From a virus (Duplodnaviria > Heunggongvirae > Uroviricota > Caudoviricetes): 64,000 nucleotides of DNA. Position 1 is the first letter of the stretch, and every line of letters begins with the position of its first letter. Positions 5,690 to 59,044 of the stretch are shown piece after piece. The translations under genes and the position numbers were made by a program. The stretch spans positions 8,095 through 72,094 of the IMG/VR virus record IMGVR_UViG_3300022555_000023; one strand, written 5' to 3'. The notes under the pieces were generated by a model. The model did no database searches. It saw nothing but the letters and a program-made list of their open reading frames with translations, and had not been told where the DNA came from.

Positions 5690-8600
5690 TCAACCCTTGG
5701 CATGCTGCTCAGCTTGGCGACGATAGAATCGTGCCCGACCGAAGTGATTACTCGCTCGGTTCGTGCTGCCGGCAGCTCGGTGCTTCACGGCAGAATCGGC
5801 AAACGCCTCAGATGCCCTGACTGCCAACGAGGCTTTCTCGCCCGGTGATGCCGTGGATGCTCGGTACGCCTTGCCCGCCTGCTGGGCCGTCTTCATGGCC
5901 GCGTCAGCACGCTCCTGCATGGCCGCGTAAGCTGGATGATCCTTGAGCTTGCCCTTGCGGTCTTCAAACTCGTGGTCGCTGGCCCCGTGCTCGTGCAGGT
6001 GCATGAAGGCCATCAGGGCTCGGGCCTGCTCGTCATGGTCTTCGGTTCCGGGCTGGTCTCCGACCGCCTCGGCCAGCTTGGCGGCCTTCATGTGCTTCAC
6101 CGCGGCATCGCCCAGGCGGTTGCCGATCCAGTGGTGCATGGAATCCTCGATGTCGGGCGTCAGGGCCTGCGGCGGTCCACCGTGGTGGTGGGCGTTCATG
6201 GCCTCGCCCGCAGCTATGCGGGCGGCGTAGTCGGCCTGCTCGTACTGGATAGCCTTCTTCGCGTCGGGCTCCTTGGGCTGGCCAGCACTGTACTGATTGC
6301 CGCGGAATTCATGCCCCGCAACGTCACCAAGCTCCAGCGGCACATCCAGACTCAACCGAGCGTCGCGGGGGCGGCGGGGAGGATGGGCTTCAGCCTGGGC
6401 CTTGGCCGCGTTATCTCGCAGGGCCTGCATCCTGCCGGCGGATGGCAGTCTGACCACGTGCTCGCCTGCTCCGCGTATGCGTCGCGATTCCTCCTCGTGT
6501 TCGCGAGCCGCAGAGATTGCTGCCTTCTGGGCGGCGTGGTGCATGCTGGCGAACTCCAGGCTGACGTCACTGCCGTCTTCTTCATGATGCTGGGCGGCGA
6601 GAACATGACCTTTAGCAGCCTTCTGGAACTGCTCGGCGGCCTTATCATGATCTGCCGCCGCACCGGAGGCAATGGCTTTCTTCGCCGTCACCAGGGCCAC
6701 GTTGTTATCGCTGGTCGACGCGATGCTCTTGGCTAGTGCGCCCTTCTGCACCGTACCGGCTAGGGGGAACAACTTATAGTTCCGGATGGCGGCGTTAGCC
6801 TTGGCAGATGATTCTGTTGCCGTGAACTGGTTGCCATGAAACGCGTGCCCTGCGACGTCACCAAGCTCGATAGGTAGATCATGACTCAGGCCCTTGATCT
6901 GGAAATCATTCTGACGGCCCTGCACGTTGGCATTGTGAGCATCCCCGTACTTGCGACCATGCTCGTCATCATCTTCCGGGTTCCAGCCGGCGGCAATGGC
7001 CTGCCTACGCATCTCATCTGCCTGGAGACTCATGCGTTTTCCCTGAGCCATCGAAGTATGACGTGTTGCCAGGTCTTCCAGCTTCTCAGGATCATTGGCA
7101 GCACTCTTCGCCACGGGCAAACCACGGTTCTCATACACGCCCCGCACGGTTCTGCCGACAGCCGCAGCCTCCCTCAGATGACCCGCAGCATCGAGATGAT
7201 GCTGTATGGCCTCGGGTGTATCCCCGGCAGCCAGAGCCCGTGATGCTGCTTGTCCAGCCTGCGTTGTATGGTACTTGTGCTCAACGTAGGCTGACATACT
7301 TACATCATTTGCCGCCGCGTGCGTATCATCATGAAGTTGCTGAGCTGCCGTGACTGCATTGCTTTGCGCTACCGCCGGCAATGCAGTCAAATCTGTCTGG
7401 GGACGGTCATGATACGGCTCGATCATATTCTTACCCACGCTTTGCTGCGGGTTTATGGGCAGTCCCGCATCGTGCGTGATCACAACAGCATTGCCGCGGT
7501 CTTCGACGACCCGGAAGTCACGAGCATCATCTCCGGGATCCTGCCACTCCGGTTTGATGGCTACCCGCTGGCCTGCCAGGTACTGGCCGTGCTGCTCGGC
7601 GGCTCCCTCCAGATACTTAGCCGTCTCAATATGCTCTCGTGCCGCCATTCTGTGCTGGCCGCGTTCAAGCTGGGTCAGCCTTGGTGCCTCAGAGGCATTC
7701 GCATGACCTTCGGCGGCGTCGCGACAACGTGATGCTGCGGCAGAATACAGGCCGTCCTTGACGAGACGCTTCGCATCATCTGAAGCGTCCACATGACGTT
7801 TGCCAGCCCGTGCGCCCTTCGTACTGTTGGTGGCGTCACTAGCCTTCTTCACAGCATCAACGGCTCCCTGGTGCGTGTACTGATTCCCGTGGAACTCGTG
7901 ACCTGCAACGTCACCAAGCTCAAGATCAATATTTAGGCCATGACCTAAATTTAGGTCATCGGCTAACGCGGTGTCAGTTTGGCTCATGGCCATATCCTCT
8001 GGTTTGGTACTTCCAGTCCAAGACTGGAGATGATGGTTCGCCAGTTCCTGTAGGGCCTCGCCGGCAGAGCGACAGGCGTCGGCGGCGTCTTCATGATATG
8101 AATCGTGACCATCGGAACTGTTCAGGTCAGCATCGTTGTGCAGGTCGGCTGTGTGATGATACTCGTTCGCAGCCCTCGCACAGGCTTTGAAAGCAGCGTC
8201 GTTCGACCGGCCCGAGGCTGACTCCTTCAGGGCGACCACGGCTGCCGTGTTGGCCGCACCGTGTGCGTCGCGTGCGGCTGCTCCGCGGCGACCGGGCGGT
8301 GAGCCAATGGCTTCCTTGCTGGCCTTGGCGGCGTAGTCTACGGCCTCCTGTGCGGTCGCGGCGAACCTCCCACGGGCGTCCCGTTCCTGGCCCTCGCCGT
8401 GGCTGGCCCGCAGATCTCCCCGCAGGGCGGTAGCTCCGTCGCCAACAGCGTCGTCCTTGGGCTGGCACGTCTGGCCGCAGGTCGGGCACTTACCATCCTG
8501 ACACGCACCCTTGCAGGCCGGGCAGGTGGCATCCTGGCTCAATGCGGCGTCCTTACCGCCACCGATGAGAACCGGGTGTCCGTTGATCGTGACCCAATGA

Positions 8601-10337: not shown

Positions 10338-10579
10338 ATTTCCTCCGTGTTGGTTCGACAGGTCGCTTCCTCCATACGAATGATCATGTCGTAGATACGA
10401 CGTGTTGACTCGTTGCAGGTTGCATCTGGCCCGGCCCGGCTGCCTACTTCATCGGTCTGCAACCACGATTCGTCTACGGCGGAGACCTTCGTATCGACGT
10501 GCGTGCGAGTGTTGGTCTCACGTATCCGCCCCAGGGTATTTTCCATGCGAAGCAAACGCTGCTTCAGGCTGTGTATCAT
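10334..10579 (-). CDS. hypothetical protein
   Basis: 81-aa ORF, AGGGGG upstream of ATG. Confidence 0.6.
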   Translation of the reverse strand: MIHSLKQRLLRMENTLGRIRETNTRTHVDTKVSAVDESWLQTDEVGSRAGPDATCNESTRRIYDMIIRMEEATCRTNTEEI

Positions 10580-11283
10580 ATTGAGCCCCCTGGAAATGCA
10601 GCCCGCCCAGTCATTGGGCTTAAACGTTGCTCGCCTCGGGTGCTTCTAGATTTAAATGTGGGGCGGGGGCCTGAATCTGTTGCCGGGTCGGAAAAGCGAG
10701 TGGCGGCTGTGTTTGGCGCGTCCGACCCGATTTTCAAAGCTGTAGTCCCCGTGACCCCCCGTCCATGAGAAGCATCACGTCTCCTGTCTACATAGATACT
10801 GTCTACATAGATACTGTCTACATAGATACTGTCTACATAGATACTGTCTACATCCGCCCCCATGACTTCCGTTTGCTTCGGTATGATATCCTTATCATAT
10901 TGTTGTTGAATCAACGTGTGACGCGACGCACAACCACGCAACATGTCTATACAGATCTTGTTACGTCGCTGTGCGTTCATTACGCTACTCCTGTACACCG
11001 TCTTCGATCACGCGACGCAACCGTGATCTCCTGCGATCACTGGATGTCTTGCGTTGCACACGTCCATTAGATTACAGTTACTGTTCGCGTGTGTATGATC
11101 TTCATTCATCGTTCGTTTCATGAAGACGCGTCCTGTCACGCGTCTCACGCTCGTCCTTGGGTTTAAATCTTCCCTTAGAGTTGCCCAGCCATCTGTATGA
11201 CGTACACATCGTGCAACGCACGCTGCGTCTACGCTTACCGTTGGTCTTACGTCGTGTGCCCATGTGCGTGTGTGATCTCGTGG
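10580..11283. other. ~700-bp non-coding gap with tandem repeat and hairpins (candidate origin or regulatory hub)
   Basis: Only low-complexity or Arg-rich ORFs here. Inverted repeats GATCACG-N9-CGTGATC (~11007) and GACGCGT-N6-ACGCGTC (~11124). Stem GGGTCGGA..TCCGACCC (~10686-10729). Confidence 0.5.
10784..10854. repeat. 15-bp tandem repeat CTGTCTACATAGATA x 4.7
   Basis: Perfect head-to-tail copies read directly from the sequence. Confidence 0.95.
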
Positions 11284-19798: not shown

Positions 19799-20756
19799 TA
19801 TTTCGTACCTTCACGCAACGGTCCCACGACTCACCAAACACCCTCTCCCAGTCATTGCTGCTCACATCGAGGTAGCGGGCAACCCAGGATCGCACGTCAA
19901 GCCGGGTTTGCAGGCCCTCGCGGTGCTTGATCAGGGACAGGCCGGCGTCTGGCGTACCGGGCCGCAGGTCGTCGATGCTCAGGCGGGGCACGTCGGGCAG
20001 CAGTGGCCGCACCACGTCGCTGAAGGCCCGATAGTAGTCCGGAATGCCTGTGTCGCTAGGCAGGGCCAAACTGAACGCCAGGGGCGGGTATAGCTGGCCG
20101 TGCATTTCATCCTCCAGCCAGCAATGTACCTCCCGCACCTTGCCGCGAGCAAGCCTTCGCAGGGGCACGACATGCTCCTTCCACGTGAACTCGCCCGTGC
20201 CTTGCCAGATATCGAAGAATCCGCTGTCGTATGATCCCGGCTGGCAGTCCTTCAGGAACTGGAACAGGTCGGCTCGCACCACGCGTCGGTATTCCTTCCG
20301 CAGGGCCATGCGGCACAGATTCGGCCACACCAAGTCGATGATACGCTGGTCGTTCTCCACGACGGTGATGCCCTTGACCCGGCGATTGTAAGTCGCGTAT
20401 GTGGGAGCAACTCCCAAGCCCAGACCGCCGATCAGGGTATTGCCGTGCAGATACTGGACGGCGTCGTCCATCTGCCATAGCTCGCAGGGCACTGTGGACA
20501 TCCACGTGCCGCCCTCGTACTTCAGGGCGTTCGTGATGACGTCACTGGAGAACCGCAGCGAGACTGGTCGCTTTCCCATCAGAATCGCGTTACGCATCGA
20601 CACCAGATCGATGGGTACGCCGGCCTTGATGGTACTGATCACCACCTCGACGTCCTCGATCTTGCCGGGAGGTATCATCGGCATGCGTCGCAGCAGGCGG
20701 CACATGCGAGTGTTCGTATCCTCGGGCGTCTTGTTGCGTACCAGGGTTCGGCTCAT
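19782..20756 (-). CDS. Rossmann-fold SAM-methyltransferase/spermidine-synthase-like protein
   Basis: LIGGLGLGVAPTYA..GITVVENDQRIIDL..DSGFFDIW resembles motifs I, II and the post-I acidic residue. Confidence 0.5.
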   Translation of the reverse strand: MSRTLVRNKTPEDTNTRMCRLLRRMPMIPPGKIEDVEVVISTIKAGVPIDLVSMRNAILMGKRPVSLRFSSDVITNALKYEGGTWMSTVPCELWQMDDAVQYLHGNTLIGGLGLGVAPTYATYNRRVKGITVVENDQRIIDLVWPNLCRMALRKEYRRVVRADLFQFLKDCQPGSYDSGFFDIWQGTGEFTWKEHVVPLRRLARGKVREVHCWLEDEMHGQLYPPLAFSLALPSDTGIPDYYRAFSDVVRPLLPDVPRLSIDDLRPGTPDAGLSLIKHREGLQTRLDVRSWVARYLDVSSNDWERVFGESWDRCVKVRNNDRSG

Positions 20757-21016
20757 TGTCCATCACTCCTTTTCGTAAAATCACCGGGAAACACAGCACG
20801 TTCCAAACGATCAATACGTGCAAGTATGTCCGCACTAGCGGTCTCCGTAATAACTGAAATATTCGCTAGTGCGGAATCCAGCAGTTCATCGATGGCTTGT
20901 GATCTGTACATCCGCCTGCCGATCTGACCCTGACGCATAACACGATATGCCTCGATCTTTTGATACCGAGTTTTGCGAATTCGAGCGTCTTTCGATAGTT
21001 TTGGAACGTTCTCCAT
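20753..21016 (-). CDS. hypothetical protein
   Basis: 87-aa ORF, 4-nt overlap. Confidence 0.6.
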   Translation of the reverse strand: MENVPKLSKDARIRKTRYQKIEAYRVMRQGQIGRRMYRSQAIDELLDSALANISVITETASADILARIDRLERAVFPGDFTKRSDGQ

Positions 21017-27840: not shown

Positions 27841-28082
27841 GGCTTCTCCGCCTTCATGCTGATCACGCAGAACGACTCGCTGCGGGAAATCTGGCCACCG
27901 TTCTGATAGTTGAACTTGTGGTACAAAATATGATGCCCCTGCCAGTCGAAGGTAGACCAGCCGTTGCCCACCTCGCGGACGTTCGTCGCTCCCGTGGGAA
28001 GGGTGTCACTGGTCGGGGCCACCGTGGTTTCGCCGCAGCCGATACATAAAACCAGCAGGGCTAGAGCTAGAAGTCGTTTCAT
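27837..28082 (-). CDS. lipoprotein
   Basis: AAGGAGGA SD, MKRLLALALLVLCIGCG lipobox. Confidence 0.7.
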   Translation of the reverse strand: MKRLLALALLVLCIGCGETTVAPTSDTLPTGATNVREVGNGWSTFDWQGHHILYHKFNYQNGGQISRSESFCVISMKAEKP

Positions 28083-28474
28083 GTTTGGATCCTCCTTCGC
28101 GTTGGGGTGGCAGGGGCCGCTGTTTGGCCCCACAGGCGGTCAAAGTCACTGGCCAGCCGTTCTATCGACCTGCGGGCGACGGGCTCACGTGCGGCCACAG
28201 GCGGCGTCACAGCGGGTCGTGACGGGGCCTGGGCTGGCGTTCGGGTAGTTAAGGCCGATACATCGGCCAGGGGCTTGTCCCAGGCGGGCAAACCGGCGTC
28301 TTCCTCGCCCCACGGCAAATGGCCGGGAGCCTCGCCGGTCTCGGACCTCGTGTACTGGCCGAACTTGTCCCGAACCATGACCACCGGCGGCCCAGACTTA
28401 TTTATGAGCCCGTGGAAGATGATCTCGGCAGTAGCTTGGTCGATGTCGTGCATGGTGCTTTCAATACTGGACAC
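28079..28474 (-). CDS. hypothetical protein ending in RRRIQT
   Basis: ..ATPTRRRIQT*. Here the tag codons CGA AGG AGG ATC CAA ACA double as the SD of the lipoprotein gene. Confidence 0.6.
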   Translation of the reverse strand: MSSIESTMHDIDQATAEIIFHGLINKSGPPVVMVRDKFGQYTRSETGEAPGHLPWGEEDAGLPAWDKPLADVSALTTRTPAQAPSRPAVTPPVAAREPVARRSIERLASDFDRLWGQTAAPATPTRRRIQT

Positions 28475-28617
28475 CGCTGCGGCGTATGATTATCCCAGGG
28501 CAGCCTCTCGTATTCACGATCTGGATGATGACAGGAGAACCCGCCGTGGCTGTCCAGGTTATGAACGCAGCCCCAGCAATACGGCCCATCGTCGCACTGC
28601 TTCGGTCCAACTTGCAT
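28402..28617 (-). CDS. Cys/His-rich small protein (71 aa)
   Basis: MQVGPKQCDDGPYCWGCVHN.., TGATG junction with 28617..28889. Its 3' end overlaps the next gene. Confidence 0.45.
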   Translation of the reverse strand: MQVGPKQCDDGPYCWGCVHNLDSHGGFSCHHPDREYERLPWDNHTPQRCPVLKAPCTTSTKLLPRSSSTGS

Positions 28618-28889
28618 CACCCGTCCTCCATCAGTCGCACGTTGTTTTCTTCCCACGGGCTTGGATCGTCGCTCCCGCCATGTTCCATCGGACAGCCTGG
28701 GCCGGCTGAGAATAGCTGGGCCGGTCGGCTGCTGATCGTGTCGCGGAACAGTTCGTCGGCACACTCACGGCAGTACATCATCTCGTGGCAGTGCGGCGTG
28801 ATGCCGGCTCGCGATAGCTTATCCATACGATTTGATGGATCGAATCTACACCGGCACGCTTTGCAGGTAGGCCGCAGGTCACTCATCAT
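28617..28889 (-). CDS. zinc-ribbon protein
   Basis: CKACRC..HCH..CREC, ATGA overlap with the upstream gene. Confidence 0.6.
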   Translation of the reverse strand: MMSDLRPTCKACRCRFDPSNRMDKLSRAGITPHCHEMMYCRECADELFRDTISSRPAQLFSAGPGCPMEHGGSDDPSPWEENNVRLMEDG

Positions 28890-29251
28890 AGCCCCTTCTG
28901 ATCACGCTCCAGTTTGATGCGGGGACTGTTCAAGTACCTGTGCATCTCACGCCACAGGCGGCGGGACTCATCGGTCAGCCATATTAGGTAGTCCAGTGGA
29001 ACAGCATCGATACGCTTACCCTCGTACTTCCCAAACCTCATGGTCGCCGTCTGGCCATAGGCTTTGGCCTCGACATCGTTCATGGGTACGGTCGCCGCAG
29101 TTCCCTGTTCCGGACGAACAGGTGCTGGTAGCCAGGGACTTATCAGTTCGCCTAAACGATTAGCAACAATACGACGACCGAGATCATTCATATCACTAAC
29201 TTCGCTAATGACCAAGGCTGCCAACTCGGATGCAACTTCACCTGGACTCAT
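28886..29251 (-). CDS. DUF3820-like protein
   Basis: MRFGKYEGKRIDAVPLDYLIWL signature. The N-terminal 42 aa are paralogous to 30046..30177. Confidence 0.6.
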   Translation of the reverse strand: MSPGEVASELAALVISEVSDMNDLGRRIVANRLGELISPWLPAPVRPEQGTAATVPMNDVEAKAYGQTATMRFGKYEGKRIDAVPLDYLIWLTDESRRLWREMHRYLNSPRIKLERDQKGL

Positions 29252-29793
29252 TTAGGTTGATTCCTTACTAAATTCCGTTCCACAATCGCCTCTGCAACTC
29301 GAAGTAAAGGCCCCTCACCCCAGACACCCATAGCGTTATTCACTAGTAACCAAACAATTCTAATGTTACCCTGAACGTAACCACACGATGGATCAATACG
29401 ATCTAACGACATCTTTCCGTAGTCAGTAGTTTGCTCAAACGGCATAGCCGTTATAGCACAAACACCGCCCTGTAAATCATAAACCTGACGCAGGTATTCT
29501 AGCGATATGTTGCAATCCAGGTTACGTCTGGCACTACGAGCACGTGCGTTTCGCATCATACACTCTAACGCTATGGAAACATCTACGTGACGACGATCTC
29601 GATGCTTGCGTTGACTCTTGCCAATTATCGCCCTTGCCTTGTCTGGATCATTCTTCCAAAGTTCTGCCCATCTTTTTGCACTACGCATATTTATAGATTC
29701 ACGATTCCGTAGGTAACACTGGCGATTTGTGTACCTCTTTCTAGCCTTCCTAATTTCTTCAGGACTTGTTTGAATTCGTCGTCGTTCTAGCAT
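29248..29793 (-). CDS. HNH homing endonuclease, N-terminal ERRRIQT
   Basis: TAAGGAGC SD before ATG 29793 (MLERRRIQT). ..SLDRIDPSCGYVQGNIRIVWLLVNNAMG. Locally AT-richer than its surroundings. Confidence 0.75.
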   Translation of the reverse strand: MLERRRIQTSPEEIRKARKRYTNRQCYLRNRESINMRSAKRWAELWKNDPDKARAIIGKSQRKHRDRRHVDVSIALECMMRNARARSARRNLDCNISLEYLRQVYDLQGGVCAITAMPFEQTTDYGKMSLDRIDPSCGYVQGNIRIVWLLVNNAMGVWGEGPLLRVAEAIVERNLVRNQPK

Positions 29794-29926
29794 GGCGATG
29801 CTCCTTATGCAGTCCGCCAGAGGCCCTGGAGCATCGCCAAACGCAGACAGGGCGTGGCGGACATGATTTGGGCATTGGCGATGCTCGACTAGACTCATGG
29901 TACATTAAACCACAGCCGATAGCAAC

Positions 29927-30177
29927 TCACGGCTTCACCTTCGCTTTCGCCGCCTTCTCCCGCATCGCCGCGGTCGCCCGCAGGAACGCCTCGGCGTAGT
30001 CAAGCTGGCCCTGAACGTAGCCGTCGTGCCAGTCCTGCGAAGAGTTTACATCAGGAAGGGCTGGATGACCTCGGCGAGCCTATTGGCCACAATACGCCGA
30101 CCAAGGTCGTCCATACCCTTCACCTCATCGTTGAGGATGGCTACAAGCTCGGCTGCGACTTCTGCTGGGCTGTTCAT
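29927..30177 (-). pseudogene. frameshifted paralogue of the 5' part of 28886..29251
   Basis: The 43-aa ORF 30046..30177 (MNSPAEVAAELVAILNDEVKGMDDLGRRIVANRLAEVIQPFLM*) is about 60 percent identical to the N-terminus of 28886..29251. Similarity (LPDVN vs LPAPV) continues in another frame down to stop 29927. Confidence 0.5.
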
Positions 30178-30410
30178 GGCATGTGTCCGAAATAGCGGCT
30201 AACCGCGGTATATGATGCTTCGCCGTAGCACACGTGCATCCAAATGGCAGCAGCGATCCACCGAGGCAATTGTGCCCAAGATTTATCCCATTGATAGAGT
30301 GCCCAACTAATCGTTGACCACCCAAAGTAAAACGCCAAAGCATCGTATCCCACGGACAGAACGACCGCCGTGCAACAGATGCTCGCTAGTATGATCGATA
30401 GCGTGCTCAT
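30174..30410 (-). CDS. membrane protein
   Basis: Two or three hydrophobic helices, ATGA overlap downstream. Confidence 0.6.
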   Translation of the reverse strand: MSTLSIILASICCTAVVLSVGYDALAFYFGWSTISWALYQWDKSWAQLPRWIAAAIWMHVCYGEASYTAVSRYFGHMP

Positions 30411-30463
30411 GTTTGTTAACCTCCTACGTTCAGGTTAACAGTCATCCGCAAGCCGTGCAAGGC

Positions 30464-31177
30464 TTACGGCATCGTTGTCATTCTCCGTTTGCTCATGAGC
30501 TTGGTGTAGACATGCTGGAGGCCACCCTGCACCTCGGCGAAGAACTCATCGTCGGCATCGCAGCGGTCCAGAAGCTCCTCCAGCCAGGCGTTGGCCCACT
30601 TCGTGATCTTCTTGCGGCTACCCTCGGCCACCTCTTCCAGTTCAGCCACCTTCTTCTTCAGGTCGGTGATGGTTTTCTCGTGCAGGCCGATGAGCTTCAC
30701 CAGTTGCAAGGCTTCGGGCTTGTCTGTGTCGCAGCCCCACACCAGGGCATGGATGATATCCCGCAAATCCGGGTAACCTTCGCCCTTAACGCCGGTAGCC
30801 TTGACGACGATGTTGCAGCACGCGATGTTCTTCGCCACCAGCATCTCGGCCAGTTCCTTCACGCCCGTGCCGGGCGGGACGTCCTTCGGGTTGAGGTGAT
30901 GCTCCATGATCGCCTTCGCCCGGTACATGGCCTCGACGCTACAGTGCTTGGCCGCGGCCAACTGCTCGTTCGCCTTGTCGAGTTCCATGCCACGCAGGTT
31001 GGACTCGAAGCTGTGATGATCTTTCAGGCGTTCGGCGTTCTTCAAACGAGACATCACCGCTTTGGCGGCGTCCACGATGTCGACGATGCTGTCGTCAGGC
31101 TCGGGTATCAGAACGTCCCGCACCTCCTTCAGTATCTTGGAAAGGTCGTGGGCCGGTCCTACGCTACTATCGCTCAT
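30464..31177 (-). CDS. hypothetical helical protein
   Basis: 237-aa ORF with AAGGAGAA SD. Confidence 0.7.
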   Translation of the reverse strand: MSDSSVGPAHDLSKILKEVRDVLIPEPDDSIVDIVDAAKAVMSRLKNAERLKDHHSFESNLRGMELDKANEQLAAAKHCSVEAMYRAKAIMEHHLNPKDVPPGTGVKELAEMLVAKNIACCNIVVKATGVKGEGYPDLRDIIHALVWGCDTDKPEALQLVKLIGLHEKTITDLKKKVAELEEVAEGSRKKITKWANAWLEELLDRCDADDEFFAEVQGGLQHVYTKLMSKRRMTTMP

Positions 31178-31199
31178 GGTTTGTTCTCCTTATGCTGTA

Positions 31200-31207
31200 C
31201 CAGACAC
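31200..31207 (-). promoter_or_regulatory. GTGTCTGG junction motif
   Basis: 22 nt upstream of ATG 31177, just after two hairpins. Confidence 0.5.
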
Positions 31208-31223
31208 ATGCTAAATGAGGGCA

Positions 31224-31250
31224 GGGAGTAGAACGTGAGATACTACTCCC
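31224..31250 (-). terminator. 8-bp stem hairpin GGGAGTAG/CTACTCCC
   Basis: Lies after the stop of 31284..32711. A second hairpin GCGAAT/ATTCGC sits at 31262..31276. No clear U-tract. Confidence 0.4.
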
Positions 31251-31283
31251 CTGACAATGCTGCGAATACAATTCGCGGCTTGT

Positions 31284-32711
31284 TTACTTCACGGCCTCGG
31301 CGGTCTTGACCGCAGCCTTGGCCTTCGCGGGCGGCACGTCCGCTGTGGGCATCGACAATAGCATGGTTGGCCCTGCACCGCTGCTGCCGTTCATTAGGTA
31401 CACCGGCATGCGGCCATCCCAGGTCTCCAGCATGCGGCTCTGGATTTCAAGCTGCTTCAGCATCAGGTACGCCTGCGGGTTCTCCTGAAGTTTCTGTAGC
31501 TCATACGCCTTGGCGTCGGCGACAGCCTGGATGCCCTTGGCTTCGCCCTGCTTGATGGCCAGCACCTTGGCTGCCTCGCCCTCGCCCACGGCCTGCAAAG
31601 CCTTCTTACGCTCCGTGGCGGCTTCCTGTTCGGCCTTGGCGACGTTCTTGTCCTGCTGCTGCTGGAAGACCTTGTCAATGGATGTCTGGATGTTAGGATT
31701 TGCGTAGGTCAAACCACCCTTCATACCAATGCTTGTGATGGTAATTCCTCGCTCGACGAAGTACTTCTGAGCCTCGTCTCGCATCGCCTTCAGGAACTCG
31801 GTCTTCCTATTGCGACCTTCATCCATCGTGTACTTGGCCGCCTCGTCGGAGAAAACCCGCTGGAGAACGGCTCGCACCTCGGTATCCATGACGTCTTCAA
31901 GCCCTACGGTCTTAACGACGTAGTCATCCTTGTATCCGCCGCCCGCCTTGATGACCCTATCCTTGTTCGCCGGATAGTTGAAGAAGAACTTAACCGCGTC
32001 TTCCTCAGTCAGAATACGGGCAACGATGGAGATGCCGCAGGAGAAGTTCACCGAATCACTGGACTCGACGTCAATGGCCTGGTCCCTGAACGACGTTCCT
32101 GTGTGCGGGGCTGCGGTCCACTCTCGCGTACATGGAACGCGATCTACAATGAAAACCTGAGCGTCGGGGATAAACTTGCCGTTGTTCCAACCATGACCCA
32201 TGTCCTGCCAGCGGTACGGAATAAGGATGCGCTTCGACTGCACCCAGGGTTTGCCCTCGGCAGTCTGCTGAATGAACATCTGCGTGGTCTTCGTCGCCGT
32301 TTGCTTGCTGTTGTCCTCCTTCTTCACCATGAATGCCGTCTCGGAATTACCGACATCGACGAAGACCGGAGTATCGTAGGGCGACTGACACCCACCGACA
32401 AGCAATAGCAGCAACAACGCTGGTGACATACTGGTCGCAAAGGTTTTGCCCGCCTTCGTGGCGCGCTTCAGTTCGGGCATGAAGGTCAGCAAGGTCAGCA
32501 GGGAGAACGAAGTCCAGATGATCGTGCCTGGGTACTGCTTGGCGACTTGCCAGAATCGCATGTTCTGCTGCTCATGCCGGGAGCGACTGTGATCAAGCTG
32601 GTTGTAAGCCATTTGGTCGTTCACCTCCGGAACGACAGCGTAGTGCCAGTAGCTGTGAGCCACCAATGCAGCCACGAACATGAATCCTATCAGAAACACT
32701 TTTGCAAACAT
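31284..32711 (-). CDS. SPFH/band-7 (prohibitin/HflK-like) membrane protein
   Basis: N-terminal transmembrane helices and an internal lipobox-like LLLLLVGGC. The SPFH core and Ala/Glu/Lys-rich coiled coil (..QQQDKNVAKAEQEAATERKKAL..) are typical of the family. Confidence 0.8.
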   Translation of the reverse strand: MFAKVFLIGFMFVAALVAHSYWHYAVVPEVNDQMAYNQLDHSRSRHEQQNMRFWQVAKQYPGTIIWTSFSLLTLLTFMPELKRATKAGKTFATSMSPALLLLLLVGGCQSPYDTPVFVDVGNSETAFMVKKEDNSKQTATKTTQMFIQQTAEGKPWVQSKRILIPYRWQDMGHGWNNGKFIPDAQVFIVDRVPCTREWTAAPHTGTSFRDQAIDVESSDSVNFSCGISIVARILTEEDAVKFFFNYPANKDRVIKAGGGYKDDYVVKTVGLEDVMDTEVRAVLQRVFSDEAAKYTMDEGRNRKTEFLKAMRDEAQKYFVERGITITSIGMKGGLTYANPNIQTSIDKVFQQQQDKNVAKAEQEAATERKKALQAVGEGEAAKVLAIKQGEAKGIQAVADAKAYELQKLQENPQAYLMLKQLEIQSRMLETWDGRMPVYLMNGSSGAGPTMLLSMPTADVPPAKAKAAVKTAEAVK

Positions 32712-35255: not shown

Positions 35256-35693
35256 TTAACCAGACACTGCACTTCTATCACGGTAATGTACTTTGCGATG
35301 ACAGTTTGAACAAAGCACTATGCACTTCCGAACCTCGGCTATGATTAGATCAATGGGAACACTAGTATTTATCATGTGCCTAACGCTATCAACTTTCTCG
35401 CCAGTAACATGATGAAAATCTAAACACGCAATATGCGTTTCCCCACACGAGCATCTATCAACACCGAGCACAGCAAGTAGACGTAACTTCATGTTCTCGC
35501 TACGCTTCCGATAACGTATACGACATGATTCCCGTGCATAGCTCGTTCTTACATAAATCCTCGCAGCCTCTCTTCGGCATGATAGACACGTGGATACGGG
35601 CCGACCGCGTGACATACAGAAGTTGCCCGTAATCGGTTTAGTGTACCCACATTTAGCACATCGCTTCGTTGCTATTTTCTGTCGTTCAACCAC
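35256..35693 (-). CDS. HNH homing endonuclease
   Basis: CSCGE..LDFHHV..N..CSNCHRKVH. N-terminus MVERQKIAT. AT-richer than its flanks. Confidence 0.8.
   Translation of the reverse strand: MVERQKIATKRCAKCGYTKPITGNFCMSRGRPVSTCLSCRREAARIYVRTSYARESCRIRYRKRSENMKLRLLAVLGVDRCSCGETHIACLDFHHVTGEKVDSVRHMINTSVPIDLIIAEVRKCIVLCSNCHRKVHYRDRSAVSG
35260..35267 (-). promoter_or_regulatory. GTGTCTGG junction motif
   Basis: Overlaps the last codons and stop of HNH gene 35256..35693. Confidence 0.5.
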
Positions 35694-44996: not shown

Positions 44997-46211
44997 TTAC
45001 TTCTTTCCGAATCTAAGCCAAATATCACTGCCACTACCACAGGCCGGGCTGAACCAAACACGCTCGCGGCCCGCGTTCCCGCGAAGAAACTGCCCGCCCT
45101 TCTCTACCTTCTTGTTAGCCCCATCCTGACCCTGGTTTCCGTAGCCTCCTGCGGCTGTCCACGCGTGAACTGCCCATCCGTTCTGCTCAAGGATATCACC
45201 TTCCGGTGTATAGCCGCAGTACGCGATGCGGTAGATATTCGTGTCTTTGTTCGCTCGGCACCACGCGGGGTCGGTATGCTGGATGCACCACTCCTTGATC
45301 TTGGTGCTGATGTCGGCATCCTGATTTGTGTATAGGGTGCCGTTGAAGTTGGCATCAGCACCGTAGGGCGGGTCGAACATGATGCCTATTTTGCCCGTTC
45401 CCGTGAACGCGGGCGTCACGGCCCGCGACCAGTCACCGCTGAGGACTAATGTCTGTCGCATGCGGTACGACAGGGCTCGCATCCACGACTTGAGGTAGTC
45501 AAGCTCCTGCCGCAGCACGCCCCGGTTCCCCACGCAGGGCACGCTACAGGTGATGCCGTTGCCGTCCCGTCGCGGGTCGTCCTTCTCCAGGCACACAAGC
45601 TCGTCGTTGATGACGTACCACGGGCCGTCGCCGCTACAGAACCCACCGCCCAGCTTCATGCAGATGCCCCACAGCCACCACGCGCCGAGCTTCACGTCAC
45701 AGAAGTCGGTACTGCCGCCCACGAGCTTCCGCATGCGATCCCTGGATCGCGTGAGGTGCGAGTGGATGGCGTGCAGTTCCATCTCGGCCAGCATGATACC
45801 GTTGCAGATCTCAGCCACCTCGTCGGGATGACGGCTGATGGCCCTCCACGCGTTCACCAGGAGGGCATCGTAGTCGTTGAGGACTTCACGGCCCACCCAC
45901 GGCTGTGGTCGCACGAGGTACGTTGCTGCGGATCCCATGCACGGCTCGATATAGCAGTCGAGGGTCTTGGGATCCAGGCGACTCCATATCTCATTAGCGA
46001 CACCGCTTTTTCCGCCGAAGTACGGATAGGGGGCAACAAGTAGCTTCTCGTCCACGTTCCCGCTATCACCAATATGCCTGCGAGCAGGGGTCGCAATCGA
46101 GCGACGGACGAGGGTACGCTGGTCGGATGTCGGTTCTTCCGCGACGGGAACCTCCACGGACGAGATGATGCGGCGTCGTGTAGGTACGGTTTCGATATTT
46201 CGGCGTTCCAT
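44997..46211 (-). CDS. Dam-like (D12 class) N6-adenine DNA methyltransferase
   Basis: YPYFGGKSGVANEIW..YIEPCMGSAA..NDYDALLVN and catalytic DPPY (IMFDPPYGA). N-terminus MERRNIETVPTRRRII. Confidence 0.8.
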   Translation of the reverse strand: MERRNIETVPTRRRIISSVEVPVAEEPTSDQRTLVRRSIATPARRHIGDSGNVDEKLLVAPYPYFGGKSGVANEIWSRLDPKTLDCYIEPCMGSAATYLVRPQPWVGREVLNDYDALLVNAWRAISRHPDEVAEICNGIMLAEMELHAIHSHLTRSRDRMRKLVGGSTDFCDVKLGAWWLWGICMKLGGGFCSGDGPWYVINDELVCLEKDDPRRDGNGITCSVPCVGNRGVLRQELDYLKSWMRALSYRMRQTLVLSGDWSRAVTPAFTGTGKIGIMFDPPYGADANFNGTLYTNQDADISTKIKEWCIQHTDPAWCRANKDTNIYRIAYCGYTPEGDILEQNGWAVHAWTAAGGYGNQGQDGANKKVEKGGQFLRGNAGRERVWFSPACGSGSDIWLRFGKK

Positions 46212-46884: not shown

Positions 46885-47106
46885 CTAACCTATACCCGGC
46901 ACCTGAATAGAGCAGACCGTGTCGTTCGGCGTCGTACTGCTCCACGTGTCGCCGCGTTCATGGCCGACCACGTATGCTTGCAGGAGGCTCAGGCCCTTCT
47001 GAATCACCAGGGATGGTGTAAGGTCGTAAGCATCGCACATGTGGTCGATGAAGGCTTCGGCTTCCGGTGTGAACTCTATTTCCATGATATTACATCCATT
47101 GTCCAA
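46885..47106 (-). CDS. hypothetical protein
   Basis: 73-aa ORF. Confidence 0.55.
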   Translation of the reverse strand: MDNGCNIMEIEFTPEAEAFIDHMCDAYDLTPSLVIQKGLSLLQAYVVGHERGDTWSSTTPNDTVCSIQVPGIG

Positions 47107-48949
47107 GGTGGGATCCGCTTTCGTCGCGGGTCACGGTAAGTACACCATCAAACAACCCGCTGTCCAGGCTGCGGTGATCGACGATAAAGATTCGTTTGTT
47201 TTCCACGCGGGCTCGCGTGCGTAGAAAGTCCAGCAAGTCGGCAACACCCTGCACGTTCAGGTGTGCTGTCGGCTCGTCCCATATCTCGCAGTCGCACATC
47301 ACGCCTGCGTAGTCGCTGACCAGCTTCATCATGCCAACCGTAGTCGCTATCCGCAGACGCTGCACCTCGCCGCCGCAGTATGATTCCCACTTCGACGCAA
47401 TCTCCGAACCCGGAGGTGCGATCATGGTCTGCATGCCGTGGGATAAAGTGCCGGCCTTGGTTTTGCGTTCGACGACGAACTCCACATTCCATCCGTCCAG
47501 GCCGAGGGTCGCCACGTCGCTGTTCACGTGCGTTTCAAGCTGACGGAGAGCGTCCTCCATGATGCTCAGCCGCAGGTTCTTGAAGCCGCGGGTGGCCCAG
47601 AACTCCATGAACCGCTCATTCCGCTTCGCCACCCGCAGGTCGAACAGGCAGTCCCGCATGCTTTCGCCGAGGGCTCGCATGTTCTCCAGAGTTTCCTCAT
47701 ATTCCAGGGTGCGTTCACCGCTGGCACTAGCAGTCGCCTCCAGCCTCGCGATATCGGCCCGCACATGACGCAGATCGGCCTCGGATTGCTCGCGGGCGGA
47801 ATCGGTGCGGCGTACCTGGGTCTCCATCTCCTGCCGGGACCGCTGGAGGGTACTGACCGTGCGGTCATGCCCCGCCACCGTCTGGCGGATTTCGGTGAGG
47901 GATCGGCGGGCCTCAGTTTCAACGGTCTCCAGTTCCTGCCGTTTGGTCTTGGCCGCGGCCACCTTGTTCGCCCGCGTTGCAAGCTCGGTGTCGAAATGAT
48001 CTCGCGACACCACCTGCCCGCACTCCACGCAGCGGGGGAATGCCCGCTTCAGGCGTTCTACCTCGCCGCTCAGGCGTATGATCTCGGTTTTCTGGGCGGT
48101 TACCTTGGCCGACGCCCCGGCCTGTGCCGCCACAAGGTCTTCCACCTGTATCTGGGCCTCACGTCTCGCCGCTGTGGCCTCGTCTACGGCCCGCTGGGCT
48201 ATGTGTACCTTTCGCCGCATCCAGGCCACGTCCCGCCGCATAGAGGCTATGTCGGCCTCGTATTGGGTCGCTTCGGCCTCCAGGCGTGTACGGTCTTCCT
48301 CAAGCTGACGGCGGCTGCGGGTGATAATGGCGTCGAGGCTCGCCAATCGGTCGGCCACCTCCTCGTAACGGCCCTTCACCTGGGCTTGGTTGGTGCTGGC
48401 CTCCGCCGCCTTGATGGCTGCGGCGTTAGCGGCGTCCCTGGCTCGGGCAGCACACTCCTGCCAATAGTCCAGGCCAAGAACGAAACTGAACAGGGCCAGT
48501 TTCTCGGCGGGTAGCAGGTCAACGAAGTGGCGGGCGAACTGCCCAACCAATGCTGCGAAGCTGAAGCAATCGAAGTTCAGACCGATGGCTTGGTTCGCTG
48601 CGTCCTGATCGATTTCCTGGCCGTCGAGGGTGATGCTTCCGGGCTGCGTAGACCGCCGCATGATATGCTGCTGGTTGCCCTTCAGGTACTTCACCTCGAC
48701 CGCAGATGATCGCGGCCCGTTCCACGATGCCACTTCCCCGCCACGCAGGCCGCGTGACGTCTTGCCATAGAAACACCACGGGATGGACTCGACGAGGGTA
48801 GACTTGCCCGCACCGTTGGAATGTAGCTGGGGGGCGACGGTGTTGTCACCCCCAATCATGTATAATCCGGGACGTTCAGGAAGAACCCAGCGTGTTTCCT
48901 CGGCGAACGACTTGAATCCCTTCAGGGTGACTTCCTGTATATGCATCAT
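47090..48949 (-). CDS. Rad50/SbcC-like SMC-type recombination ATPase
   Basis: Walker A SNGAGKST, long coiled coil with a central CVECGQ hook-like CxxC, and C-terminal Walker B/D-loop RIFIVDH. Confidence 0.8.
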   Translation of the reverse strand: MMHIQEVTLKGFKSFAEETRWVLPERPGLYMIGGDNTVAPQLHSNGAGKSTLVESIPWCFYGKTSRGLRGGEVASWNGPRSSAVEVKYLKGNQQHIMRRSTQPGSITLDGQEIDQDAANQAIGLNFDCFSFAALVGQFARHFVDLLPAEKLALFSFVLGLDYWQECAARARDAANAAAIKAAEASTNQAQVKGRYEEVADRLASLDAIITRSRRQLEEDRTRLEAEATQYEADIASMRRDVAWMRRKVHIAQRAVDEATAARREAQIQVEDLVAAQAGASAKVTAQKTEIIRLSGEVERLKRAFPRCVECGQVVSRDHFDTELATRANKVAAAKTKRQELETVETEARRSLTEIRQTVAGHDRTVSTLQRSRQEMETQVRRTDSAREQSEADLRHVRADIARLEATASASGERTLEYEETLENMRALGESMRDCLFDLRVAKRNERFMEFWATRGFKNLRLSIMEDALRQLETHVNSDVATLGLDGWNVEFVVERKTKAGTLSHGMQTMIAPPGSEIASKWESYCGGEVQRLRIATTVGMMKLVSDYAGVMCDCEIWDEPTAHLNVQGVADLLDFLRTRARVENKRIFIVDHRSLDSGLFDGVLTVTRDESGSHLGQWM

Positions 48950-49346: not shown

Positions 49347-49646
49347 TCAACCACTACCGTCGCGGTAGTTTATTTCGTTATCGTCGTCATCTCCACCCGC
49401 AGACGCGTGCAGTAGCACGGCCTCACGTATGCCGCATGCAGCCGCCTGCTGAAAGAACCTAATTGCCTGGTCGGGGAACTCCGTGAACCGCCGGCGTACT
49501 GATTCCACGTCCTCGGTAGCCAGCCAGTTAAATAGGAAGTCCTGCACAGCATCATCTGTTTTCTCCCAGACGCTGCGTAGCTCCTCCAGAGCCATGTCCT
49601 GGTTCGACCGGCCACGCAGGAAAGCAATGCGTTCGTCTTCATTCAT
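49347..49646 (-). CDS. hypothetical protein
   Basis: 99-aa ORF. Confidence 0.6.
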   Translation of the reverse strand: MNEDERIAFLRGRSNQDMALEELRSVWEKTDDAVQDFLFNWLATEDVESVRRRFTEFPDQAIRFFQQAAACGIREAVLLHASAGGDDDDNEINYRDGSG

Positions 49647-49882
49647 GATTTCACCTCAGCCGCGTATGCGGCGTCCTCCTCGGCCTGGTTTCGTAAACCA
49701 AGCTCGACGTCCCATGTATTACCTCGTTGTAGGCTACACCACATGAACGATACATTCTTCCCACTATCGGTTTTTACTACATAAGTTTTACCGCTAGGTC
49801 CGCACTCATCGATAACGCCATGTAGCCCACGATGTTCCGCGGGATCGCATAGGACTTCTTCGCCTACACTGAACGTAGTCAT
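49643..49882 (-). CDS. hypothetical protein
   Basis: 79-aa ORF, 4-nt overlaps. Confidence 0.55.
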   Translation of the reverse strand: MTTFSVGEEVLCDPAEHRGLHGVIDECGPSGKTYVVKTDSGKNVSFMWCSLQRGNTWDVELGLRNQAEEDAAYAAEVKS

Positions 49883-58483: not shown

Positions 58484-59044
58484 TCAAAATGGGACATCGT
58501 CCACCCTACCACGGTTCGCGGCTATGGTTCGCAGCCTAAGATTCCTATAAGAACAGTTCGCCCTATTCTTATCTCGATGATCTACATCGTAACCATCCGG
58601 TATTAGTTTTCGGCGAACGGCCATGTAAACTAATCTGTGAACCATAGCACCCTTGCGGTGACCGTTCCAGTAGATGCGGACGCTGGGGTAACCATTACGG
58701 TCTAAATCCTGCTTGAGGATGACCCACTGCTTCGTCCACTCGTGACAAACCTTGCGGTGCTTACGAACCACGCCGGTTATCGGATTGACCTTGAGATGAC
58801 CTTCCTCGATCAGTTGTAGTATTTGATCATCGGTCATCCTGCGGTATTTGCGCTCGCGGTAGTTTCGCAGCTTCTCGACGTAGACTGCGTCGGTTCGCCA
58901 TTTGCCGCCGCAGGCAAGGCACTTCACCTCGGAATACTTACTGGCCACCTCGTCGCCGGTCGTCGATGTAGCCACGAACCGCCGCGTGCAAACGTAGTTA
59001 CTCCGGGTTCTACATCCCGGCAGACAGCGGCAGCCTTGAGCCAT
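58484..59044 (-). CDS. HNH_3-type homing endonuclease
   Basis: NGYPSVRIYWNGHRKGAMVHRLVYMA..DVDHRDKNRANCSYRNLRL. Confidence 0.8.
   Translation of the reverse strand: MAQGCRCLPGCRTRSNYVCTRRFVATSTTGDEVASKYSEVKCLACGGKWRTDAVYVEKLRNYRERKYRRMTDDQILQLIEEGHLKVNPITGVVRKHRKVCHEWTKQWVILKQDLDRNGYPSVRIYWNGHRKGAMVHRLVYMAVRRKLIPDGYDVDHRDKNRANCSYRNLRLRTIAANRGRVDDVPF

Follow-up and report, generated by a model that had tools for sequence, protein, structure and literature searches.

Free-standing homing endonuclease genes are thought to shape the mosaicism of phage genomes. Ordinary homing replaces sequence without duplicating it and, to our knowledge, natural scars that record the repair of an invasion are rarely described. 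[quoted passage not shown] A "one-sided" form of T4 homing, as recounted there from Parker et al. 1999, involves illegitimate repair of the double-strand break at microhomologies. Outside of these enzymes, T4 Srd, called an "anti-sigma factor", has a reported role in stimulation of host RNase E (PMC4980113), and active-site roles have been assigned in the restriction enzyme PacI to Asp, Asn and Tyr, with Tyr the proposed general base (PMC4081073; PMC5714182).

The locus described here resembles those of segB/F/G and mobE. It likewise has an intergenic nuclease gene beside a conserved gene, sporadic in relatives, with a flank that appears to have travelled along, a repair set of the UvsX/gp32/gp46-47 type in the phage and a predicted RBS hairpin. 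Unlike SegB/F/G and MobE, the protein of 181 aa is neither a GIY-YIG nor a canonical HNH enzyme; it displays a PacI-like Asp-Tyr-Asn site, and a homing function is putative.

The source is an uncultivated T4-like phage of ~190 kb, whose recombination set comprises RecA/UvsX (7.7e-40), gp32-like, SbcC-like and Metallophos proteins. The window, i.e. the whole stretch of 64 kb analysed, displays on the minus strand the order 78-aa gene, resident-type A 5′ module joined to B 3′ end, spacer, nuclease gene, gene A and zinc-finger gene (Table 1). An earlier interpretation, termed here the sequence-only reading, had described an HNH gene between two diverged copies of one 5′ gene segment, and the open reading frame (ORF) listing gave these ORFs at the same coordinates. 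Homologues of the 78-aa gene are found at the same position in L001- and L007-type relatives; the zinc-finger gene follows A in the window and precedes A in the L001 and L020 relatives.

Table 1. Features of the locus in window coordinates.
Feature	Positions	Strand	Basis or remark
78-aa membrane-protein gene, conserved left anchor	30174..30410	-	ORF listing; stop overlaps next start (ATGA)
A_up, 43-aa ORF, resident-type copy of the A 5′ module with premature TAA end	30046..30177	-	BLASTP, GC3
Junction patch TCATCCAGCCCTTCCTG, to which A-type and B-type sequences both align	30052..30068	-	Codon and nucleotide alignments
B remnant, 3′ third of gene B (LPDVNSSQDWHDGYVQGQLDYAEAF...KP-stop), -1 frame relative to A_up	29927..30058	-	BLASTP
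GC-rich structured spacer, 133 nt	29794..29926	-	Absent in relatives (no blastn match in L001 or L007)
Free-standing gene for a 181-aa PacI-like His-Me-finger (HNH-superfamily) putative nuclease	29248..29793	-	Stop overlaps ATG of gene A
A_dn-N, low-GC 5′ part of gene A (codons 1 to ~41-51), probably a co-imported module copy	29100..29251	-	GC3, change points
Intact gene A, 121 aa: N-terminal helical module, Pro-rich linker, DUF3820/QSregVF_b domain	28886..29251	-	Pfam, orthologues
90-aa Cys-rich zinc-finger-like gene, right anchor	28617..28889	-	ORF listing

Some 20 contigs, assembled independently in several projects and by different assemblers, share this arrangement at 100% identity, down to the premature stop at 30046 and both junctions; a contig of 192.5 kb and a Logan assembly are among them. 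This identity rules out an assembly or sequencing error. Among the matches listed, every contig that shares an identical 78-aa or 90-aa neighbour and reaches the site contains both the nuclease gene and the ORF of 43 aa. When the neighbouring proteins were looked up by exact match, no nuclease-less variant of this lineage (78-aa gene, A, zinc-finger gene) was found, which counts against the origin proposed below. A blastn search with positions 28000-31500 against 50,697 phage records gave no match. The tail of contig L013 is a PolA-like chimera and that of L023 consists of 31 unplaced nt; both are uninformative.

Four related lineages have no nuclease gene at this locus. In L001-L006 and L020 the zinc-finger gene is followed by A, and in L007-L012 and L021 gene B is followed by A; the HMM of the nuclease family finds no copy in either set, thus presence of the gene at this conserved locus is sporadic. 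The gene pairs (B/A or zinc-finger/A) abut with an ATGA stop/start overlap. The module HMM scores two and only two hits in the window and a single one at each locus of the relatives. The comparison with nuclease-less relatives which the sequence-only reading had proposed therefore gives a single-copy module in all four lineages, and the arrangement it had named as contrary evidence, with both paralogues intact and adjacent and no HNH gene, was not found in them. Gene B of the relatives is a single-frame gene with an N-terminal transmembrane segment. The region is otherwise mosaic, i.e. the zinc-finger gene is before or after A, and B and an EndoVII-type gene are each present or absent.

The assignment of gene A as DUF3820-like is borne out by PF12843, with a score of 23.9 bits (cut-off 22) over residues 69-94 only. 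Orthologues P0002, P0003 and P0006 display 57%-74% identity, and no relatives of gene A were found in IMG/VR, JGI metagenomes or GTDB genomes. The two flanking segments are paralogous as had been proposed: A_up and the gene A module (~41 codons) share 26 of 40 amino acids (65%, BLASTP E = 5e-17) and 80 of 123 nt. They are in the same orientation, ~0.9 kb apart. Differences between A_up and A_dn-N, which affect 14 of 41 residues, had been thought to be mainly synonymous. This is so per site (pS 0.69, pN 0.26) but not by count, there being 20 synonymous and 25 non-synonymous differences. The dS between the copies, a comparison that had also been suggested, is 1.9, which is near saturation and similar to that of orthologues from different lineages. 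A_up has 66%-71% nt identity to the A genes of relatives, against 56%-58% for the downstream 5′ part (pS of A_dn-N to relatives 0.83-0.93), and its GC3 of 0.69 is close to the 0.66 ± 0.08 of 102 window genes. A_up is thus the resident-type version.

The upstream copy does not continue as gene A. The sequence-only reading had similarity to A going on in another frame, with a loss of one nucleotide in a C-run as a possible cause. The continuation (~43 codons) however has an E-value of 8.3 to gene A, whereas for B genes it is 3e-20 (P0005) and 5e-16 (L007). Since it matches B, and B is directly upstream of A in relatives, the upstream copy is a chimera between an A 5′ module and a B 3′ end, fused 1 nt out of frame at a short microhomology. 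The junction patch is ambiguous over ~17 nt and is 1 nt short of an in-frame continuation of B (CCCC in B, CCC in the window). A resident-type A is seen split between the two sites: gene A of L001 aligns to window positions 30126..30056 (L001 6049-6119) and again to 29127..28886 (L001 6125-6366). The B remnant has no usable start codon of its own, and the ORF listing shows none of at least 30 aa in its frame. Its GC3 is 0.81; with B orthologues it displays a dN of 0.19 and a dS of 1.2, and most of this divergence may predate the event. The proposal of a decaying resident remnant is therefore right as to resident type, but the remnant is an A-B chimera and not a simple leftover. The chimera is most likely a non-functional scar which yields a 43-aa peptide at most.

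The nuclease gene together with the first ~40-50 codons of A forms the longest low-GC tract of the 64 kb. The best two-boundary segment is 29138..29776, with a GC of 0.444 versus 0.575 outside, and no second 665-nt window is equally low. GC3 is 0.365 in the nuclease gene and 0.34 in A codons 1-41, and rises to 0.65 in A codons 42-121 and 0.69 in A_up; Fisher p is 0.002 for both contrasts. The compositional discontinuity that a GC and codon-usage scan was to look for is thus real. The proposed AT-richness of the first ~120 nt of the downstream copy agrees with this low GC3, but its boundary is diffuse and lies anywhere between codons 38 and 51 (change points at 29138 for GC and after codon 51 for GC3). 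The nuclease gene and the 5′ end of gene A constitute one compositionally foreign block, and its extent, from the nuclease ORF through A codon ~41-51, is that expected of co-conversion. Each of the other two clear low-GC islands in the window is likewise an HNH gene, and low GC therefore marks imported nuclease genes in this phage. No flank paralogy was found around these two genes.

In a search of 5.8 billion proteins, IMG/VR and JGI metagenomes, no close homologue of the low-GC 5′ part of A and no donor lineage were found, which counts against the origin proposed below. The only close homologues of the nuclease gene there are identical copies; remote homologues are representative-library entries that are not placeable on contigs.

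The nuclease gene had been called HNH. Membership of the His-Me finger superfamily stands, as the protein displays the ββα-metal core fold, but the label needs qualifying, and by its motifs the 181-aa protein is a PacI-like His-Me finger. It has no match at E<=1 to Pfam models (PF01844, PF13392 and others) and no relevant match in NCBIfam, and none of 40 relatives matches a Pfam HNH family. The sole matches are to PHROG families labelled endonuclease, HNH or Srd. The canonical catalytic His at the end of β1 is replaced by Arg132 (motif SLDRID), which is nearly invariant in the 40 family members. D131 and N152 are invariant in the family alignment and match D92 and N113, the metal ligands of PacI, and the invariant Y139 aligns with PacI Y100. 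Spacing is identical to that in PacI (PDB 3LDY/3M7K; His-Me finger group 20), i.e. D+8=Y and D+21=N, and His is changed to Arg in both. Unlike PacI, the 181-aa protein does not have the two Cys4 zinc sites of the PacI-like group: its only conserved Cys is C112, and the 181 aa contain no CxxC pair. It has in addition a long three-helix N-terminal extension, and is phage-borne and free-standing where PacI is a bacterial restriction enzyme. The N-terminal ~90 residues of T4 Srd belong to the same family (hhalign 98%, E = 1.6e-13; motif SLERFD..GY..GNV..YN). Srd, the best-studied relative, differs in having Glu for the metal-binding Asp and an unrelated C-terminal half. Endonuclease and homing activities of the family are putative. 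We know of no member of the PacI/Srd-like phage family with demonstrated nuclease or homing activity, which counts against the origin proposed below.

The spacer is highly structured. A 12-nt element b (29829-29840) is complementary both to element a (29875-29886) and to element c (29793-29804), and the latter spans the GGAG Shine-Dalgarno sequence of the nuclease gene and the A of its ATG. Inverted repeats (I3/I4) and a direct repeat (D4) are also present. Folding energies are -27.4 kcal/mol for b:c, -23.4 for a:b and -46.9 for the whole spacer, with z = -3.5 to -3.8. The predicted hairpin appears to sequester the RBS of the nuclease gene and so restrain its translation, as in T4 homing endonuclease genes.

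We propose, with a probability of about 0.5, that a nuclease cassette was imported with a co-converted flank and that one side of the break was repaired illegitimately, comparable to experimental one-sided homing in T4. The nuclease ORF and the A 5′ end would have arrived as one block from a lower-GC relative with the nuclease gene just upstream of its A homologue. The block sits precisely where the B stop and the A start overlap, as would a homing endonuclease gene of the free-standing kind with its co-converted flank. A genome with the 78-aa gene followed by A would then have suffered a break around codon 42-50 of A, for which cleavage by the 181-aa nuclease during co-infection would be the simplest cause. 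For the downstream end, a donor with the order B, spacer, nuclease gene, A may have provided the homologous 3′ part of A as repair template. The upstream end, facing a sequence only ~65% identical, would have been joined illegitimately at short microhomology (TCATC..CCC..) within B, and the resident A 5′ module would thus have come to be fused to the B 3′ end with a frame offset of one nucleotide. The T4-type recombination set of the phage (UvsX, gp32, gp46/47-like) may support such repair. Homing with a co-converted flank from a lower-GC donor, as first suggested, is thus favoured by the single foreign block but is not sufficient: the module is duplicated, whereas ordinary homing replaces, and therefore an illegitimate, one-sided junction is also required.

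A_up ends at codon 42, roughly where the foreign tract in A ends (codon 38-51). The coincidence is only approximate, and codon ~42 is a domain boundary too, where recombinants may simply be tolerated; both points count against one-sided repair. Bona fide A and B genes moreover share a weak microhomology, which lies outside their best local matches. Since the B 3′ end and spacer are GC-rich, the donor itself would be mosaic and at least two events would be needed, which also weighs against the proposal.

In T4 one-sided homing, as reviewed (PMC2988022), there is homology on one side of the break and microhomology joining on the other, and donor sequence comes to lie beside retained recipient sequence; the present locus is alike, with TCATC..CCC at the join. 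The T4 event was however engineered with an intron-encoded enzyme, whereas the present event is deduced from a natural scar, and the scar displays very little resection on the illegitimate side. In the SegB-driven segmental amplification of phage T6 (PMC13096335), a homing endonuclease likewise causes adjacent phage sequence to be duplicated, but there whole functional segments are amplified in tandem under selection by host defence, while here the duplicate is single, partial, diverged and chimeric.

Mosaicism independent of any nuclease is a tentative alternative. A single illegitimate crossover at chance microhomology, between a co-infecting phage with the 78-aa gene and A and one with the 78-aa gene, B, spacer, nuclease-like gene and A, would be enough for the junction. 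The nuclease-like gene would then be a passenger (moron), possibly with an Srd-like role, gained earlier together with the A 5′ end. The highly mosaic region in relatives accords with this, as does the family membership of Srd, for which a homing role is unreported, and cleavage by the nuclease-like protein is itself hypothetical. A chance crossover leaves unexplained why the resident copy ends within ~10 codons of the end of the foreign tract. The catalytic Asp-Tyr-Asn positions of PacI, invariant in the family and retained in the 181-aa protein, the HNH genes in both other low-GC islands and an RBS-sequestering hairpin typical for homing endonuclease genes also argue against it.

That the upstream copy is functional is quite improbable. 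It could be expressed by a programmed -1 frameshift, an alternative raised in the sequence-only reading, as a fusion of the A module with the C-terminal part of B, or as a 43-aa peptide, e.g. a modulator of protein A. The B-derived frame is open for 43 codons with a low dN/dS (0.19/1.2) to B orthologues, translation from the ORF start is coupled to that of the 78-aa gene (ATGA) and the arrangement is stable across many samples; however the database copies are all 100% identical and thus uninformative on selection. Positions 30177..30040 contain neither an in-frame X XXY YYZ heptamer nor a homopolymer run for slippage, the fusion and its two-frame arrangement are found in no relative and no database protein, and the N-terminal transmembrane segment of B would be lost. 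A tandem duplication of the A 5′ part in situ, with long divergence of the paralogues and later insertion of the nuclease gene between them, would account for two nearby copies in the same orientation, but is most improbable: every relative has just one copy, the remnant has not decayed further in spite of a dS near saturation, GC3 differs by 0.35 between the copies as between resident and foreign composition, and it is a part of gene B, not A, that follows the upstream copy. An artefact, i.e. a chimeric contig or homopolymer error, has a negligible probability. Several short contigs begin or end within 29938..29996 and two have deviating tails (31 nt of alternative sequence in L023, foreign in L013), but the identity of the stop and both junctions across projects and assemblers contradicts it.

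The anatomy of the locus fits one-sided homing of the T4 type with illegitimate repair, and the event is of a known type, here recorded as a natural scar. If repair followed cleavage as proposed, gene A should be cut in the vicinity of codon 40-50. Current concepts are unchanged; what is added is one clean example from nature and a candidate family of enzymes. The locus points to the large, uncurated PacI-like family, T4 Srd included, as a candidate class of mobile nucleases; it counts at least 6,600 cluster representatives but is not covered by a Pfam model. These PacI/Srd-like Asp-Tyr-Asn nucleases might constitute a major, hitherto unrecognised family of phage homing endonucleases of the free-standing kind, with Srd a domesticated member and the present locus a natural snapshot, but this is doubtful. 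If true, such an enzyme could, through one-sided, microhomology-mediated repair, duplicate part of a gene and create a new chimeric ORF, i.e. nuclease-driven exon or domain shuffling in phages.

Several minor sequence elements were also considered. Scans for sigma-70 promoters and terminators gave no excess over shuffles. The window has a single match to a T4-type late promoter, TATAAATA; it lies within the nuclease ORF and is compatible with chance (18 of 100 shuffles). A 14-nt repeat, GG(T/C)TACGTTCAGGG, is common to the nuclease gene and the B remnant, where ~1 such match is expected by chance by our estimate. A possible leftover start codon of A at the left boundary of the insertion (CCGTGAGT) matches for just 1-2 nt beyond the ATGA overlap and was set aside. 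Gene A also weakly matches the C-termini of DnaQ/ExoX-type NCBIfam models.

In this part of the window every gene lies on the minus strand (Table). Gene A, which is DUF3820-like, matches PF12843 (DUF3820/QSregVF_b) with 23.9 bits, i.e. barely above the threshold of 22. The arrangement is genuine. Exact look-ups with the 181-aa, 78-aa and 90-aa proteins gave about 20 contigs from various projects and assemblers, including a 192,532-nt contig (ERZ27245846 k141_83342) and a Logan assembly. Over the locus all of these match the window with 100%, or at least 99.9%, identity, premature stop included, which makes an assembly or sequencing artefact unlikely. A nuclease-less variant of the window's lineage is absent from these contigs, and no DNA-level relative was found among 50,697 phage records.

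Features of the locus and other parts of the window, with third-position GC content (GC3)
Feature	Position	Strand	Length	GC3	Remark
Membrane-protein gene	30410..30174	minus	78 aa		First in 5′ to 3′ order
Upstream copy (ORF)	30177..30046	minus	43 aa	0.69	Start in ATGA overlap with stop of 78-aa gene
Open −1-frame stretch, B-derived	after 43-aa ORF, to stop at 29927	minus		0.81	
Spacer	29926..29794	minus	133 nt		
Elements a/b/c	29793-29886	minus			
Element a	29875-29886				
Element b	29829-29840		12 nt		
Element c	29793-29804				
Nuclease ORF	29793..29248	minus	181 aa	0.365	AAGGAG in front, spacing 7 nt
Gene A	29251..28886	minus	121 aa		ATG overlaps stop of 181-aa ORF
A codons 1-41				0.34	
A codons 42-121				0.65	
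Cys-rich gene	28889..28617	minus	90 aa		
102 minus-strand genes of window		minus		0.66 +/- 0.08	
HNH-type gene	35256..35693	minus		0.38	phrog_2255, 1.7e-22
HNH-type gene	58484..59044	minus			phrog_59, 1.1e-15
Small ORF	20753-21016	minus			
Small ORF	10576-10998	minus			
Small ORF	49643-49882	minus			
UvsX-like RecA	60277-61470				T4-type recombination/replication set
gp32-like SSB	62458-63780				T4-type recombination/replication set
SbcC/gp46-like gene	47090-48949				T4-type recombination/replication set
Metallophos/gp47-like gene	53616-54686				T4-type recombination/replication set
D12-class adenine methyltransferase	44997-46211				T4-type recombination/replication set

The N-terminus of A has a paralogue in the 43-aa ORF, with 26/40 residues identical (BLASTP E=5e-17) and 80/123 nt identical. 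When the 64 kb are searched with an HMM of this ~42-residue module, two copies and no more are found. The orthologues in related loci are as near to the upstream copy as they are to one another (66-71% nt identity, dN 0.19-0.29, pS about 0.7). The 5′ part of the downstream gene is the outlier, with 56-58% nt identity, dN 0.36-0.39 and pS 0.83-0.93. The dS between the copies, a value that the sequence-only reading had proposed to determine, is about 1.9, the divergence of orthologues from separate lineages. Judged by sequence divergence the two copies are not a recent duplicate, and an in situ duplication of the 5′ part of A is unlikely.

The similarity of the upstream copy to A had been thought to carry on in another frame beyond the premature stop. 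This is not the case: the −1-frame peptide LPDVNSSQDWHDGYVQGQLDYAEAFLRATAAMREKAAKAKVKP displays no similarity to A (E=8.3) and is the C-terminus of B, a protein of 101-106 aa with a hydrophobic segment at its N-terminus (E=3e-20 with B protein P0005, 5e-16 with the gene of related locus L007). A patch of about 17 nt, TCATCCAGCCCTTCCTG at positions 30068..30052, is alignable to both A-type and B-type sequences. These alignments show the upstream copy to be, in its sequence, a chimera and not a broken A: a resident-type A 5′ module is joined at a microhomology to the 3′ part of B. The C-run in the window is 1 nt shorter than in B (..TCATCCCACCCCTTCCG..), thus the B part is out of frame, and no start codon in the B-derived frame gives even 30 aa. 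Programmed frameshifting in the upstream copy is unlikely, as the 43-aa ORF has no slippery site of the type X XXY YYZ and no protein with a fused A-module/B architecture is present in a 5.8-billion-sequence collection.

Several short contigs end inside the B remnant (window 29938-29996), which could hint at strain heterogeneity there. Contig L023 has 31 nt beyond the break (2315-2345) that are absent from the window, and the tail of L013 (1520-1755), probably joined chimerically, codes for a PolA-like fragment; both tails are too short to interpret.

The GC content of the window is 57.7%. When two boundaries are fitted, the best low-GC segment around the duplicated module is 29138..29776 (GC 0.444 vs 0.575 outside), and no other 665-nt stretch in the window is as low. 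A codons 1-41 differ in GC3 from the rest of A and from the upstream copy (Fisher p = 0.002 each), so the compositional discontinuity noted from the sequence alone is borne out. The foreign block consists of the nuclease ORF and the 5′ end of A. Its right-hand edge is diffuse, not sharp: the GC change point in A is at codon ~38, similarity to the orthologue in related locus L001 starts again at codon 42, and the GC3 change point is after codon 51. Apart from this segment the window has two clear low-GC islands, both of them HNH-type genes, thus in this phage low GC is a mark of imported nuclease genes; paralogous flanks were sought at both and neither has any. Three small ORFs also display low GC3 (0.40-0.49) and have no PHROG match; these may be further imported genes.

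Homologues of A outside the window's lineage form three protein clusters (P0002, P0003 and P0006), which together with the A gene of L021, the contig carrying P0005, give four related lineages, all from ENA metagenome assemblies. The gene order is 78-aa gene, zinc-finger gene, A in L001-L006 and L020, and (78-aa gene), B, A in L007-L012 and L021, where the B stop overlaps the A start (CCATGA). These relatives are nuclease-less and single-copy for the module: the 181-aa gene is absent between these neighbours in every related locus of the four lineages, an HMM of the nuclease family finds no copy in the related loci, and the module HMM finds one copy in each, always within gene A. In the window the spacer and then the 181-aa ORF come after the B stop, and with its own stop this ORF restores the ATGA overlap with A; the insertion is thus exactly intergenic relative to the B-then-A relatives. 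In blastn, L001 positions 6049-6119 of gene A match window 30126..30056 in the upstream copy, and five nt further on positions 6125-6366 match window 29127..28886 in the downstream gene. Between L001 and the low-GC 5′ end of this downstream gene there is no alignment at all. The 133-nt spacer has no counterpart in the relatives by blastn.

The zinc-finger-like Cys-rich gene is 3′ of A in the window, 5′ of A in L001 (5735-6001) and L020 (1-130), and missing from the L007 type; by these gene orders, the boundaries between genes in this region are sites of small-gene shuffling. A 230-aa Endonuclease_7 (PF02945) gene is found between the 242-aa and 78-aa genes in L007 (4762-5454) and L008-L010; the window and L001 lack it there. 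This makes a second nuclease gene, one gene away from the insertion, whose presence is polymorphic. The gene that follows the zinc-finger gene (window 28082-28620, minus strand) is in three reading frames compared with an intact 181-aa L001 orthologue (residues 1-20, 28-49 and 55-181), identically in all contigs of the lineage. This may mean that a second gene close to the nuclease gene is disrupted, or the gene structure may differ; in L007 it is split too.

The foreign block may have been imported by co-conversion, and its donor would be a lower-GC relative that likewise has the nuclease gene in front of an A homologue. Resident A would have been broken near codon 42-50, and homologous repair on the downstream side only would have created the duplicate. 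The upstream end, facing merely ~65%-identical sequence, would have been joined illegitimately within the donor's B. In T4, ‘one-sided’ homing in which DSBs are repaired illegitimately at microhomologies, as described by Parker et al. 1999 according to PMC2988022, has this same architecture, and the phage encodes UvsX-, gp32- and gp46/47-like proteins. One-sided repair would explain why the end of the resident copy lies roughly at that of the foreign tract; this coincidence is approximate (about ±10 codons) and falls at a domain boundary, which is a weakness of the homing model. The B 3′ part and spacer are GC-rich, thus at least two events are needed. The main rival explanation is an illegitimate crossover between two mosaic phages, independent of the nuclease. 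An exhaustive search with the 181-aa protein gave 6604 representative homologues, none above 41% identity, and no donor was found in 5.8 billion proteins, IMG/VR or JGI metagenomes. Of the sequence-only reading, the paralogous copies, the low-GC block and its foreign origin stand; the out-of-frame continuation belongs to B. The homing footprint proposed there has partial support, corrected in that the supposed decayed A remnant is an A/B chimera. The locus would add one more case from nature to a type of event already known, with a nuclease family not recognised as mobile so far.

Element b of the spacer is a perfect complement of elements a and c, and c spans the Shine-Dalgarno GGAG and the first start-codon base of the nuclease gene. 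Predicted hairpins are stable, with energies of −27.4 (b:c), −23.4 (a:b) and −46.9 kcal/mol (entire element), with z = −3.5 to −3.8; by this folding model the elements look like an alternative-hairpin translational switch. A hairpin that sequesters the RBS is a documented translational control of I-TevI/II/III, segB and mobE (PMC2988022).

The 181-aa protein has no match to Pfam or NCBIfam nuclease models; PHROG matches are labelled endonuclease (2.8e-21), endonuclease VII, HNH endonuclease and Srd. Family members share the motif R.RA..G..F.L....L..LY..Q.G.CA.TG.PF...PSLDRID...GYV.GNVRLV...VN.A.G.WGE., with D131, Y139 and N152 as invariant residues and Arg in the canonical His position. The family profile matches PacI (E=0.006), and the three residues fall on PacI D92/Y100/N113 with identical spacing. 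In PacI, Asp and Asn hold the metal and Tyr replaces His as general base (PMC4081073, PMC5714182). The PacI zinc sites are missing here. The Asp/Tyr/Asn site with Arg for His makes an active PacI-like ββα-metal nuclease plausible. We know of no member of the family that is a demonstrated homing enzyme.

T4 Srd is a member of the nuclease family through its N-terminal domain (residues 11-99; T4T srd record L032, 820-1566; hhalign probability 98%, E 1.6e-13). At the position of the metal-binding Asp, Srd has Glu. A literature search found no paper linking Srd to the HNH fold. Srd is a reported stimulator of RNase E (PMC4980113) and is also annotated as an ‘anti-sigma factor’. A tblastn search for Srd gave 533 phage records, which appear to be mostly Tequatrovirus srd genes.
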